Shown here: piece by piece, positions 53,004 to 63,222 of the stretch | Layout of the letters: each line of letters begins with the position of its first letter | Numbering within the stretch: the stretch's first letter is position 1 | Virus record (IMG/VR): IMGVR_UViG_3300025883_000003 | Location: 34,087-98,086 of that record | Origin: a virus | Direction: 5' to 3' (one strand) | Length of the DNA: 64,000 nucleotides | Program-made: the position numbers and the translations under genes | Notes under the pieces: model-generated | Told to the model about the DNA's origin: nothing | Database searches by the model: none | The model's input: only the letters and a program-made list of their open reading frames with translations

Positions 53004-56000
53004 GTGGTCATACGCAAAGCTGAGCGATCTAAGTGGCACACCAATGCCTCTTCGGGGTTCCCTTCGATGGTCTCGCCCGCCAAGGTTCGCGCTCGACTCG
53101 TCGCCGGCAAAGGCGAGCTGCTAGCGCAACAGCTCGCCGCCAATCGCATCTTCCGTGAGAACGAAACCACCGAAGACGCGCCGCTTCCCCGGCATATCAT
53201 CGCCATCGAAGACGTGACGCACGGCTTGGGGCTCGATGCAGCCGACGAACAAGCGGTTCAGCGCATCATTCTCGATACGAACGCGCACTTCGATCAGACC
53301 ACGCAGACCCATCGGCTGACATTGGCGCGCGCGAGCTTTGTCACGACGCTTCGGGCGATGCCTCATATCAGCTCCGACATTCGCATGGAGCTGACGAAAC
53401 GGGCCATCGCGTATTGGCGCCGGAACACGCAGACCGACTACGGCAAACCGCCCACGATCCGCTCGATCGCGGTCAAGAGTGAGCCCGCGCTCGTGATCAA
53501 GGCGGCCAAGCGCTTGAACGGCTCCGAGAAGCGCGTCGAAATGCCGCAGATCATCGCCCAAAAGCTCCCGGCGTTCCTGAAAGAGCTGCGCAAGGACGGC
53601 ACCAAGTGCAAGCGCAAGAGCTACGACGCCAGCAAGCTCAAACCGATGCAAAACAAGCTCGATACGTCCAAAGTTGAGCGGTTGAAGAGCACCCCCGAAG
53701 CCCTGAAAAAGCCGATCGTGGTGAGCCATGACGGCTTCATTCTCGATGGGCACCATCGTTGGGCCGCATGCAAGGCGTTGGGGCAAAAAGTGCCGTGCGT
53801 AGAGGTCGCGCTCGACAAAGACGAGCTGCTAGAGCAAGCCCGTGACTTCGATGGGGCTGAGTTTCGCAAAGCCGGGGCCTACATCGGGCCTAGAGGCGGC
53901 AAATGGGCCGATGCGAAGCACACTATCCCCTGGAAAGACCCCGGCTTAGAGCGCAAACGACGGCTGTTGACGCAGATCGAAGGCAGTCTGACGGCTGCCA
54001 CGCGCTCCGCGTCCCGATCGCTCGACTCCCGTGACGACGACGCCATGCGCGCGGCCGGCCATGACGTGCGCAAGGTCCGTGAACGCTTGTCGCGCGTCGC
54101 TGGGGAGCACGAGATCCACGCCAAGAGCCCCGGCGCGCTCGGAAAGCAGTACCGGACGCTCGATAAGCGCATCGCTGGGCTCGAAACGGAGCTGCGGAGC
54201 ACGCCATCGAAGCAGATGGAAGCCGCGGCGACGAAGACGATCCGCGCAGAGCTGGCGGCTGACTCGCGTGACGAGCAGTACCGTACGCAAGACGCGGATT
54301 TCATTCTTGGCGATGGGTCCGTAGACAAAGCGGCGCTCTACCAAGAGGCCGGCATGGCGCTCCGCAATCTTCGGATGCTCCCTGAGCGCGCCGATCTCAA
54401 GTGGCTCGTCAAGCTCGTCAAAAAAGAGGCGAACCTACACGAGCGCAACGTCACCAAGCCGCTTCACCGGCAGCCCAAGAACAAGTACCGCAAAGCCGAC
54501 AAGATCCCCGGCGGGCTCGCCGACAAAAAGAAGCCCTCCGACTTCGACAAAGCGAAGCTCGAAGCGGGTATCAAAGTTGAAATGGAGCACACGAGCGATC
54601 GGTCCATCGCGACTGAGATCGCCATGGATCACTTGACCGAAGACGCGGACTACTACGAGAAGCTGAAGACTATCGAGAAGTCATCGAAGCCGCCGCCCGG
54701 CTACGTCCTGGCGCCGGGCAGCAAGAAGGGGGCGTACCGCAAGAAGGTCGCCGGCAAGTGGGACCATTGGTATCCCGACGCTAAGAAGCCCAAGCGCAAG
54801 GCCAAGGCCAAGAAAAAGCCCGCTCGCGAGCCGCATATCAACGGCTGGGCGGGCGTGGTCGGCTCGGAGCTGGGCGACCATCTGCGCGGGATACTCGTGC
54901 GCTACGGCAATCTCGAAGCCCTGCAACAAGAGCTGAAGGAAACGCTCGACCCGGAGAAGCAAAAGGAGCTGACGCAGGGGATCGCCAACTATCGGGTCAA
55001 CGAAATGACCGGGATTCCGTCGAAGGCAGAGACGCACAAGCTCTTGGAGCAGTCCATGAAGCTCCGCACGTTCGATGACGTGCAGAAGTTCACCGAGACC
55101 GTGGTGGATCTCGGAGACCACAAGATCCAGGTTATCAACTTGCTCGGCAACTCGCTTGGCTGGGCCATCCGCGCCCCCGGAGCACCCCCGAAAAAGGGTG
55201 ACGACGGGTATTCGCAGCACCAAAAGCTCGTCAAGAAGGTCAAAGCCTTCGAGCAAGACACCTCGTGGCGCCGGCCGAAGAGCACGGACCCGCAAGAAGT
55301 GGCCGACACCTACAACTTGGCCATGATCGATATCAACCCGACGCTCCCTGAGCCTATCCAAACGCACATTACAGGCATGCTCAGCAACGCGTTCGAAGAC
55401 TTGGCCGACGTGCTGGGTGCGGTGAAGCTCAGCCACGGCTCGCTTCAGATTCGAGTGACGGCCCAAGAGGCGCTGTACGCTCCCGGCTACGCGTACGGAG
55501 CGCAGTACGTGCGCCCCCGGAGCCGCAACCCCGAAGATTGGGACCGGGATTGGAACTTCGGCGGCGAAGAAGCGACGCCTTCCATGGGCTCGCACGGGCT
55601 CCAAGAGAAGATGGAACAAGCGCCCCCGATGATCCGCATTTCCATGGAACGAGCTTCCGCGCTCGCTCATGAGTACGGGCATGCGCTCGATGACGCGACG
55701 GCCATCGTCAGCGCCAACCCGGCCATGAGCGAAAAGCACGCCGATGAGATTGCGGCCAAGGAAGCGGTGCACATGCTCTTGCTCCAAAGCCCCATGCGGG
55801 ACCGCGCAGAGCGGGTCGAGCGCAAGCGGGGGCCTAGAGGATATTGGGGCTCGCCGGCTGAAATGTGGGCACGCGGTTTCGAGCAGTACGTGCACAAGAA
55901 GCTGAACGACAAGGGTCGGTTCAACTCGCTTCTGACGCACCACACCTATGACGGCCGGGTGGACGATGGGGTTTTCATGGCCCCCAAAGAGTTCGCTCCC

Positions 56001-61296: not shown

Positions 61297-63222
61297 GACG
61301 ACCGGAACAAGAAACCCCGAAAGAAGCGCGCCAAGAGCAAGGCGAAGGCGAAGAACAAGGGTGTGGACGGCATGGTTCAGCCCGCGACTGGCAATAGCCG
61401 GGGCGAGCCCCTTGCGGCCGTACCGGGACGCATCTACGGCGTTTGGGCGCAGCACGTCGACGAACAGCGCGCGAGCACCGGACATTCGTTGACCCAGACG
61501 GTCACACATGTACCTAGCGGGCTCAGCCTTCAAAGGTTCACGTCGCAGCGGAAGGCTCGCGCCTTTGCGCAGTTCATGGATGAAAAGGTCGGCGACGTAA
61601 TGACCGATCTGAAGATCAACGAGTCGCCGAACACCATGGACAACGCGGAGCACAAGGCGGCGTACGCGAAGATTCGTGCAGCGATGGACGACTACGAAGT
61701 GGCGGAGAAGGCCAAGAGCGATGCCGCACGCGAGAAGCGAGAAGCCAAGAAGGAAGCCGTCCGTGCTGAGAAGCATAAGAAGTCGCGATTCTCAGACGCG
61801 CAACGGCAGTACAAGGTGGGCTCCGATGAAGCGCGAGCCGCGGTGGCTCTCGACGAAAACGGCGACCACGACGGCGCCGCCAAGAAGTACGCGCGTGCGG
61901 CCGATCTCATGAACCTCGCAGCGGAAGCAGCGGGCGACGCTGGGGATAAGAACGCTCAGCGCGCAGCGAACAACCGCTACGAGAAGTACCATGGGCTCTC
62001 TAAAGACGCGACAAAGAAGGCCGCCGACAAGCGCGCCGCAGCGAACCGCGCGGAAGAAGCCGCAGCCGACAAGGCGCGCGAGGCCGGCAAGGTGGTCAAG
62101 CCCGGCAAGGTCGAAGGTCACCGGATGACCGCGGACGGCAAGCACATCGCAGACACCGGGTTCATGAACCGAACCGGGGGCGCACTGCCCGGCTTCAGCA
62201 TGGAGCACATGGGCTTCGGGGAGTTCTACCTCAAAGGCCCCGGCGGGCGCATCGATTTCGCGCGGGGCGGCCCTGAGTTCGAAGGGCAGTCGGGCCGCAG
62301 CCACTACATGTACGATGACGCAGGCGGCGAGCTAGTGGAGAAGCTACTCGATGCCATGGCCGTCAAAAAGAGCGGCGACGCGATCGACGGACTGGAAAGA
62401 TTCACGGGGGGAGAGTACATGGCGAAGAGCAAGGGAGACGTGATCCAAGAGTTGATCGCGAAAATGGAAGCCGGCAATATCTCGGAAGAGTTGATCGGCA
62501 AGATGAAGGCCGTTGGCATTCAGGATGACGTGATCCAACAGCTCATCGGCAAGTGCAACACGCGCAAGAGCCACTTCGAGCCGTCGCTCAAAAAGGGGCT
62601 CTACGCCTTCGAAGTGGATGGTAAGGGGCGCAAGCTCTCTGACAACTTGCTCCCGCAGTATCTTGCGGCGTTTGTCGAGCAAGCCTTCGAGCACGAGAAG
62701 CAAGAGTGCGAGCACATGGAGAACAAGCCGGCCGGCTACACCGATCAGCTCACTTTCTACGCGCAGCGGATCATGAATGAGCTGGTCATGTACATGCGGA
62801 ACAACGCCGATCTCACGGCGGCGGGCAAGGATGCGACGAGTGAGACCATTGCCGCCATCCTTCGCAACTCCGGGCTCATTCAGCCCGACGTGAGCGGCTT
62901 CGACAATCCAGAGGGCAACGGGTGGAGCGGCGAAGCATCGCTCGTGCGTTCCGGCGCATCGCCGTGGCTCCAAGACGACCCGGCCGTGCGTCCCGCGGCG
63001 CAGATGGCCGAACACCACAAGCAAGCCTCGTTCATCGATGACACCGCTGATCCCGCTATCGCGCTCCGCAAATCGAACGTGGTCAAGCGGCAGCGCGCAT
63101 TTACCGCCCCAGAACCAGAGTTCGTGGTAAAGGGGGACGGAGGTTGTCCGATTCACGGCTACGGGGATCTCACCAAGATGCAGAATCTTTCGCTCCCGAT
63201 GGGCAAGTGCACGTGTAACTAA
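60250..63222 (+). CDS. Polyvalent/polyprotein C: two GPRGGKWAD-tagged segments plus C-terminal segments
   Basis: Tags at 60286 and 61231; TAATG coupling to the portal. Confidence 0.85.
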   Translation: MMDAIESLVRMVKGGPYIGPRGGKWADAKHTVAWKDDAAPKKKAKANRKESGALAAKHASAITTAMSALHDPNNKTKDKTPSGYVEVLRDAMNDAPKMTGADRKRLASTITRHLKAARVHNRNMSQRQYGKQPKDEARRVSGTDVANATRLRDNLEVTARKLREHGQDPSKKVKQQKKSATKYAQDQFKHYERKIKGATRDGIRASYERDMREVLSNYKERFGEDLPGSEGWTATEKARETAQGGPDIPAKEFNALIATPEGQKIKTTIQADLKRRLDAGADREKTVAIAETAFRNRIHKLFYNAKQEKETGQQRLALSKEAMGSLSKGGPYIGPRGGKWADAKHTISWDDRNKKPRKKRAKSKAKAKNKGVDGMVQPATGNSRGEPLAAVPGRIYGVWAQHVDEQRASTGHSLTQTVTHVPSGLSLQRFTSQRKARAFAQFMDEKVGDVMTDLKINESPNTMDNAEHKAAYAKIRAAMDDYEVAEKAKSDAAREKREAKKEAVRAEKHKKSRFSDAQRQYKVGSDEARAAVALDENGDHDGAAKKYARAADLMNLAAEAAGDAGDKNAQRAANNRYEKYHGLSKDATKKAADKRAAANRAEEAAADKAREAGKVVKPGKVEGHRMTADGKHIADTGFMNRTGGALPGFSMEHMGFGEFYLKGPGGRIDFARGGPEFEGQSGRSHYMYDDAGGELVEKLLDAMAVKKSGDAIDGLERFTGGEYMAKSKGDVIQELIAKMEAGNISEELIGKMKAVGIQDDVIQQLIGKCNTRKSHFEPSLKKGLYAFEVDGKGRKLSDNLLPQYLAAFVEQAFEHEKQECEHMENKPAGYTDQLTFYAQRIMNELVMYMRNNADLTAAGKDATSETIAAILRNSGLIQPDVSGFDNPEGNGWSGEASLVRSGASPWLQDDPAVRPAAQMAEHHKQASFIDDTADPAIALRKSNVVKRQRAFTAPEPEFVVKGDGGCPIHGYGDLTKMQNLSLPMGKCTCN

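Follow-up and report, generated by a model that had tools for sequence, protein, structure and literature searches.

A window of 64,000 nucleotides, positions 34087-98086 of the IMG/VR virus record IMGVR_UViG_3300025883_000003 (107,829 bp, rated 100% complete), contains three consecutive open reading frames (ORFs), P0001, P0002 and P0003, which end at a phage portal gene and carry six copies of a short peptide, termed here the header. The header is a real, conserved and apparently undescribed element. It leads interchangeable cargo segments, is tied to one type of phage head module and directly follows a probable prohead-protease site. These properties would suit polyvalent proteins that are cut by the phage's own prohead protease into fragments, each retaining a partner-binding header at its N-terminus; we give this proposal as a whole about even odds.

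P0001 (53004-56555, 1183 residues, with a putative GTG start), P0002 (56552-60253, 1233 residues) and P0003 (60250-63222, 990 residues) lie on the plus strand, as do all features below unless stated otherwise, and coordinates are those of the window. ATGA overlaps join ORF1 to ORF2 and ORF2 to ORF3, and ORF3 overlaps the portal gene at TAATG. A six-frame scan for G-P-[RK]-G-G-K-W detected six header copies, all within the three ORFs, and a profile built from them recovered only the same six in the complete genome, with E values of 3e-21 to 3e-19. Their consensus is h-x-K-[AG]-G-P-Y-I-G-P-R-G-G-K-W-A-D-x-x-H-T-I-x-W, where h is a hydrophobic residue. With the candidate cut marked by an arrow, copy 1 (P0001 287-310, 53862-53933) reads FRK↓AGAYIGPRGGKWADAKHTIPW and forms the N-terminal edge of a 208-residue cassette absent from the relative L090. 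In P0002, copy 2 (31-53, 56642-56710), the most divergent, reads LTK↓AIFYGPKGGKWADSAHTIPY, copy 3 (495-518, 58034-58105) VVK↓GGPYIGPRGGKWADPQHKIPY and copy 4 (861-884, 59132-59203) LRK↓GGPYIGPRGGKWADAAHTIAW. In P0003, copy 5 (11-34, MVK...AW, 60280-60351) stands at the protein N-terminus as MMDAIESLVRMVK↓GGPYIGPRGGKWADAKHTVAW, and copy 6 (326-349, 61225-61296) reads LSK↓GGPYIGPRGGKWADAKHTISW. The residues ahead of the six copies (FRK, LTK, VVK, LRK, MVK and LSK) are thus all hydrophobic-x-Lys.

The initial annotation, which had described three coupled ORFs with six peptide copies, each directly behind hydrophobic-x-Lys, is borne out on all these points. Its unit of 22 residues was too short, as the conserved unit extends over the h-x-K site and in many cases over a helix ahead of it, S-M-D-A-I-x-x-L-x-x-L-x-K. 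Two further statements stood in part: a Lys-rich linker, said to follow every copy, is clear behind three to four of the six but not behind all; and six header-led segments are indeed present, but the four or more domains of P0001 have a single canonical copy between them, so that a header does not precede each of them. P0001 also contains a variant, header-like Gly/aromatic motif of a third kind (557-592, 54672-54779), located after I-E-K↓S, which reads ..PPPGY..SKKGAYRKKVAGKWDHWYPD, ends in ...KKVAGKWDHWYPD and is followed by a K-rich run. Similar ..GGYRKRVGGKWQYWYPD motifs are found in the relatives L032 and L093.

The six copies share 77% DNA identity, the differences falling mostly at third codon positions, and over 42 loci the codons are identical at only 49% of the positions with an identical amino acid. 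Since synonymous sites differ, the header is conserved as a peptide and not as DNA, in agreement with the earlier description. The relationship between header and cargo was studied by comparison with contig L090, the portal of which is 94% identical to that of this phage. Three differences were found, each amounting to one header-led unit, and two of them map to h-x-K sites. Residues 286-493 of P0001 (header plus 208 residues) are present only here and missing in L090, with the junctions EFRK↓AG and KYRK↓AD. ORF3 of L090 has an extra N-terminal leader, header and 190 residues; this leader, MMDAIEGLVRMIK, and an internal repeat, SMDAISSLEALSK, both resemble the leader of P0003. In the MuF protein of L090, a header with a 166-residue ParB-like domain is inserted exactly after WDLRK↓ and ends at GLKK↓GD; the MuF protein here has a bare DLRK↓SA site at the position of that insertion and no header. 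The unit of gain and loss is a header together with its cargo, with candidate cut sites on its flanks wherever the junction is readable. The three header-led units that differ from L090 also uphold the earlier view that the header leads interchangeable cargo. Gain and loss that begin exactly at the header would also be expected if the repeat were a recombination module, providing DNA homology for cassette shuffling and having no function at the protein level. The scrambled synonymous sites argue instead for selection on the peptide, and one indel ends at an R-K-A microhomology and not at a second header, so that this explanation is considered very improbable.

To define the family, 1.84 billion representative metagenomic proteins were searched with the header profile. 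There were 767 matches at E≤1e-3, of which 336 reached E≤1e-10, and the matching proteins are mostly 600-2600 residues long with two to five header copies. Among the top 150 listed, 110 have two copies, 32 have three and 10 have four or five. The consensus over 340 instances is L-x-K-[AG]-G-P-[YF]-I-G-P-[RK]-G-G-K-W-A-D-[PA]-x-H-[TK]-I-P-W-x-E, followed by a Lys-enriched stretch; in the sequence logo G-P-x-G-G is invariant, and W, D, H and the second aromatic residue are conserved at 83-96%. In a Pfam tally of 45 header-bearing representatives, InPase was found in nine, and the other cargo domains were DUF5661, ddrB-ParB, ART-PolyVal, SNF2, Zeta_toxin, dual-specificity phosphatases, SAM lyase, RelA/SpoT, methylases and LPD1. 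Close database relatives of the proteins are all metagenomic and are unnamed or called hypothetical. The motif itself is covered by no Pfam, NCBIfam, PHROG or PDB model (isolated fragments at E≤10 in Pfam; profile search of PDB), and the string IGPRGG retrieved no paper in a literature search; in these resources the peptide is without prior description, as had been suspected. Two other readings, as a WW domain or as a ribosome-skipping peptide of the 2A type, were rejected, since neither fits in spacing and consensus.

No match to the header was obtained in 50,697 cultured phage records (searched with DNA and with a 45-residue tblastn query) or in 72,556 plasmids. Genomes of 185,579 species contained only six header loci, all in metagenome-assembled genomes (MAGs), and the five loci that extend far enough carry the head genes of this module beside the header. 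These loci could represent prophages or else phage contigs caught up in the binning, and give a hint of hosts from several phyla. The MAGs with header-bearing head modules (L085, which is the Myxococcales MAG chromosome CP070713.1, and L086-L088) are assigned to Myxococcales, Lentisphaeria, Sedimentisphaerales and Acidimicrobiia.

The linkage of the header to head genes was assessed in two sets of loci, 73 IMG/VR loci recovered through the header and 80 loci picked by portal homology alone. A homologue of this portal was present in 54 of the 73 header-found loci, and a homologue of the MuF-zincin gene was found within 10 kb in 48; most loci without either are short contigs. Among the genes recognised, the header-bearing ORFs sit between the terminase and the protease and capsid genes, either ahead of the portal as here or behind it, and the header is often within the MuF protein itself. 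In the portal-chosen set, the header was present in 48 of 80 loci and in 21 of the 28 loci of at least 15 kb (26 of 28 when a second header type, described below, is counted as well). All 113 headers of the portal-chosen loci are on the portal strand, and the opposite-strand frames gave no regular-expression match to either header type. The header is thus confined to head modules with this set of portal, MuF, S78 protease and capsid genes, the linkage that the initial annotation had proposed to test, and in both sets it is tied to head modules and not found mainly in proteins unlinked to them. All 80 ORFs with a complete 3' end continue for 86 residues or more (median 393) beyond their last header, and in 17 of 87 ORFs the first header is found no further than 40 residues from the N-terminus. 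The peptide is always a header, never a trailer.

Relatives without the first header carry a second type in the same place, h-x-K↓G-x-A-R-G-G-K-Y-x-R-R-V-P...G-G-Y-R-Y-Y-Y, for example at L093:7907-8062, L109:7890-8045 and L160:11932-12090. The last of these is gp26 of the cultured Leptospira phage LE1, which starts with the second header type, placed after F-L-K↓G, and is encoded just behind the capsid gene. This type also occurs in 6 of 150 proteins with the first type and matches no Pfam family. In a profile-profile comparison of the two types only L-x-K-G...RGGK-aromatic could be aligned, at a probability of 32%, and on this account their common origin is not established.

The residues directly upstream of the header resemble a proteolytic site. 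The sequence [LIVMFYW]-x-K-[AGS] is present at this position in 91% of 334 family instances, compared with 6% of control windows. The same signature is found in excess in the head proteins, with observed against expected numbers of 10 and 1.3 in the scaffold, 7 and 1.2 in the protease, 6 and 1.9 in MuF and 5 and 1.9 in the portal. In divergent relatives it is kept at the N-terminus of the capsid protein, as D-[LV]-x-x-L-[RN]-K↓A-L-x-A-G, and at the C-terminus of the protease, as L-[DE]-[VI]-L-x-K↓S-L; a segment ...G-F-P-L-R-x-E-S-L-E stands behind both sites. Of 41 portals, 39 have an h-x-K-[AGS] site in the first 60 residues and 31 in the last 45. The portal C-terminus here, ASMDALRTVDVLRK↓S, has its whole P-side (the residues up to the cut) in common with the header leaders. 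When all 32,187 positions of the proteome were scored with a P-side matrix derived from the headers of other genomes, header copy 4 gave the top-scoring site, and portal K576 and capsid K31 ranked second and third. The protease of this phage is S78-like, with a match to phrog_1028 (2e-43) and a BLASTP match to HK97 gp4 (6e-06); its Pfam S78 match is weak (0.0066, below the cut-off). The sequence of HK97 gp5 reads F-N-K103↓S104, which is consistent with the 102-residue delta domain described for this protein (PMC12749128). The same h-x-K signature recurs in the capsid, scaffold-like and protease genes of Leptospira phage LE1, where the candidate site of the capsid protein is F-M-K↓S. A literature search brought up no experimentally determined position at which the capsid protein of Herelleviridae or LE1 is cut. 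By its enrichment and by its presence in capsid, protease and portal, h-x-K↓[AGS] upstream of the header behaves like the prohead-protease site of this lineage, as had been supposed, and is probably a site of the HK97 type. From this pattern we infer cleavage at the h-x-K sites. Peptides with semi-tryptic N-termini, put forward earlier as the mass-spectrometric sign of such processing, are unfit for this purpose, since an end produced by cleavage behind Lys looks like any tryptic one.

Beyond the site itself, the protease C-terminus, VLAK↓SLSAGSAVGDPGTAPGEGFPLRTESLE (L007:4947-5687), and the capsid N-terminus, ELRK↓ALVAGSDVNDPGVAPGVGFPLRTESLE (L007:6640-8052), share a segment of about 30 residues behind the candidate cut. 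This pair lies at genome positions 101946-105051, just past the window end, and the pairing is kept in divergent relatives. Judged from this similarity, the protease may mimic the capsid N-arm for co-assembly.

A zincin might cut at or near the motif in place of the prohead protease, either the LPD1 domain of P0001 with its HEYGH sequence or the zincin-like region of the MuF protein (HEIGH; Peptidase_Mx1, 4.4e-4), a homologue of which lies beside the header in 48 of 73 loci. Zincin processing is also the general proposal of Iyer et al. 2017 (PMC5512222) for polyvalent proteins. The signature h-x-K↓[AGS], which marks the usual prohead-protease substrates as well (capsid N-terminus, protease C-terminus, scaffold and portal ends) and matches the K↓S site of HK97, speaks for the prohead protease, and zincin processing is regarded as improbable.

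If the prohead protease does act at these sites, the whole unit could be a cleavage cassette that ensures a clean cut, the header being a P'-side or exosite determinant or a disordered spacer with no later role. In its favour, the motif includes the h-x-K-[AGS] site in 91% of instances, cassette edges coincide with h-x-K sites, a different motif substitutes for the header in close relatives, and the header is predicted to be unstructured. AlphaFold2, given the 50-residue unit and a 69-row alignment, placed a helix only on the P-side leader and gave no secondary structure for the header, with a mean predicted local distance difference test (pLDDT) score of 64. A spacer would nevertheless not require some 20 near-invariant residues, among them W, H and W. 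Copies at the extreme N-terminus follow a leader of only about 10 residues, so that nothing useful would be separated by a cut. The sites of capsid, scaffold, portal and protease share the P-side and have no header, which means that cutting does not need one. A cleavage cassette alone is therefore rather unlikely, although it is the rival to which we give the most weight. The strong conservation of the header (72% between unrelated loci), its repetition for each cargo and its presence at N-termini with nothing useful to cut off argue for a role beyond cutting, one that every released fragment would need.

In the mechanism that we propose, the three ORFs encode polyvalent proteins, in which enzymes and effectors of unrelated kinds are strung together and whose genes belong to the head module. 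The upstream half of the conserved unit, an amphipathic helix ending in hydrophobic-x-Lys and followed by Ala, Gly or Ser, would be the cut site for the phage's own S78 prohead protease. The downstream half, [AG]-G-P-[YF]-I-G-P-R-G-G-K-W-A-D-x-x-H-T-I-P-W, often with a basic stretch, would stay as the new N-terminus of the cargo. The retained header would be a disordered linear motif with a partner conserved throughout the lineage, a head component or DNA, and would keep each released cargo fragment in the capsid or deliver it from the capsid. The unstructured prediction fits a linear motif that folds on its partner. Capsid protein and protease share a post-site segment of their own, presumably an interior capsid contact, and by analogy the header might bind a conserved head component or DNA; this is the partner we favour, though the view is held weakly. 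Packaging in the virion, cleavage and the binding role of the header, for which a capsid anchor, a DNA clamp or an ejection signal had been suggested earlier, are what we infer here. The more far-reaching idea, that header and protease site form a portable, lineage-wide load-and-release signal serving procapsid uptake, release by the prohead protease, retention with the DNA and delivery to the host for any protein placed behind it, is put forward tentatively and with distinctly less confidence than the proposal as a whole.

Alternatively, the header could act after injection or on DNA, the header and its basic tail binding DNA or a universal host factor and localising the effector in the cell, with no role in loading. 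A universal partner would fit the near-identity of the header across phages (72% between loci) and the MAG matches in several phyla; a basic run often stands behind the header, and the R-G-G-K-aromatic core is common to the second, very basic header type. However, the header gave no match to any DNA- or host-binding family, and its restriction to the head modules of this lineage, with absence from plasmid polyvalent proteins and from the rest of the searched phage genomes, is unexpected for a general localisation signal. Action solely after injection is accordingly considered unlikely.

Several observations weigh against protease-cut polyvalent proteins with a retained, partner-binding header. 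P0001-P0003 have no MuF domain, so that no route into the capsid is evident. As some close relatives carry a different motif in place of this header, the exact peptide is not indispensable. The h-x-K-[AGS] signature is not significantly enriched in the polyvalent proteins (11 observed against 7.2 expected, 8 against 5.7 and 7 against 5.1), because these proteins are Lys-rich. Nearly all information in the P-side matrix comes from three positions, and the upstream half holds little beyond L(-2) and K(0). A complex prediction with capsid protein, scaffold and header (P0003 1-50) gave a score of 0.00, which weighs neither way, and picked out no partner. Headers are barely more alike within a genome (77% identity) than between genomes (72%), and thus give no signal of co-evolution toward a phage-specific receptor. 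Finally, the phages that carry the header are known from metagenomic sequence alone.

Polyvalent proteins are described by Iyer, Burroughs, Anand, de Souza and Aravind (2017, PMC5512222) as giant proteins, proposed to be packaged and injected, that join ParB-like, zincin, kinase, InPase, ART, SNF2 and further conflict domains, that are encoded beside portal and terminase genes and for which zincin processing is proposed. P0001-P0003 resemble them in combining at least two unrelated domains per polypeptide (ParB-like, DUF5661 and LPD1 in P0001; Zeta_toxin and unassigned segments in P0002), in lying beside the portal-terminase system, with TerL at 50127-51725 on the minus strand and the portal from 63222, a layout kept in relatives, and in the cargo repertoire of the 45 header-bearing representatives (InPase, ddrB-ParB, ART-PolyVal, LPDs, SNF2, MTases). 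Term searches of PMC5512222 turned up no recurrent inter-domain peptide. The polyvalent proteins studied here have a header that those of plasmids lack and that no Pfam LPD model matches; and the signature of the site speaks for the serine protease of the prohead and not for the zincin proposed by Iyer et al.

The arrangement also recalls the capsid targeting sequence of the T4 internal proteins IPI-IPIII, which are cut by gp21: both are short, portable in principle and next to a prohead-protease site, and a head destination is proposed here. The T4 sequence precedes the cut (L/I-x-E↓), which removes it, and each protein has it once, at the N-terminus. The header, in contrast, stands behind a predicted cut that follows Lys, would stay on the fragment, recurs within polyproteins and has no sequence similarity to the T4 signal. 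In phiKZ and SPN3US the protease belongs to a different family with the site S/A/G-x-E↓, the cuts have been measured and, to our knowledge, the retained fragments have no shared header. Two publications (PMC10052503, PMC7411985) describe for these phages many proteins of the head interior that the prohead protease processes and that enter the host by ejection; the cuts described here are, by comparison, predicted only. With HK97 gp4 and gp5 the system shares the S78 protease family and the hydrophobic-x-K↓S type of site; HK97, however, has no packaged effector polyproteins, and its gp4 resembles the protease of this phage only weakly (27% over 81 residues). Many relatives fuse a header and cargo behind the MuF head protein, as in the toxins and effectors fused to MuF (SPP1 gp7/Mu F family), whereas the three ORFs here have no MuF domain and the phage's own MuF-zincin gene has no header. 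Polymorphic toxins have boundary motifs, such as VENN in CdiA, in which a short conserved peptide marks the start of swappable C-terminal modules; these differ in sequence and in their secretion context, and occur once per protein as opposed to the several headers here. Packaged, protease-processed effector proteins are a known kind of system, and what is new is a repeated, cassette-defining header that would be retained.

Injected phage proteins are hard to recognise from sequence. If the header is a true marker, it flags hundreds of candidate early effectors in metagenomes, including kinases, ADP-ribosyltransferases, pyrophosphatases, ParB-like nucleases, SAM lyases and many unassigned domains. 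Should load-and-release hold, the approximately 770 header-bearing protein clusters would be a catalogue of injected effectors and the header an engineerable delivery tag. To load foreign proteins into capsids, a small tag that brings its own cut site and stays on the product would be a simple solution. The lineage would then add and drop effectors as bounded cassettes, and cassette gain and loss is visible between near-identical phages. The analysis also yields the testable prediction that the prohead protease of Leptospira phage LE1, like that of a large group of uncultivated phages, cuts at hydrophobic-x-K↓A/G/S.

The cargo of the three ORFs was assigned where possible. P0001 comprises, in order, a ParB-like domain (174-289, 53523-53870; phrog_2859 at 2.5e-20, plus ParB phrogs) directly 5' of header 1, the header, a helical segment, a DUF5661 domain (518-559, 54555-54680; Pfam 1.1e-09), the variant Gly/aromatic motif, an LPD1 zincin-like domain with HEYGH (945-1009, 55836-56030; Pfam LPD1 2.5e-13) and a basic tail. 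P0002 begins with a leader and a header, followed by a basic low-complexity stretch and a Zeta-toxin-like P-loop kinase domain (192-364, 57125-57643; Pfam Zeta_toxin 5.7e-31), and then by two further headers, each with a cargo lacking assignment. The low-complexity stretch, about 110 residues after header 2 and ahead of the kinase (56711-57040), contains repeated P-K-G-R-(K/R) units. P0003, with a 13-residue leader and twice a header and cargo, gave no family match in Pfam, PHROG and NCBIfam searches, and nothing usable came from querying the ESM Atlas with two cargo segments.

The large terminase subunit gene (50127-51725, minus strand; phrog_38 at 1e-57) marks where the head and packaging module begins on its upstream side. 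The portal gene (594 residues) runs from 63222 to the window end at 64000 and on to genome position 99092, and its product has candidate protease sites at K24, K43 and K576. It is followed by genes for a 251-residue unassigned protein, a 582-residue MuF-like protein with a C-terminal zincin-like region, an S78/HK97-type prohead protease, a probable scaffold of 308 residues and the capsid protein, which is a distant relative of Herelleviridae capsid proteins. From the portal to the capsid gene this set spans genome positions 97308-105051. MuF is thus encoded by a separate downstream gene, and a Pfam search detected no MuF (Phage_Mu_F) domain in P0001-P0003. The scaffold (L007:5677-6603) contains a strongly acidic run, DDEEEEDEDEDDD, and another acidic run lies near the portal C-terminus; these runs may be electrostatic partners for the basic linkers behind many headers. 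Between the terminase and polyvalent genes, a gene resembling nucleoside 2-deoxyribosyltransferases (phrog_355, 4.4e-21) is located on the minus strand at 52202-52654, and the relatives L010 and L032 have a minus-strand ORF of 150-162 residues at the matching position.

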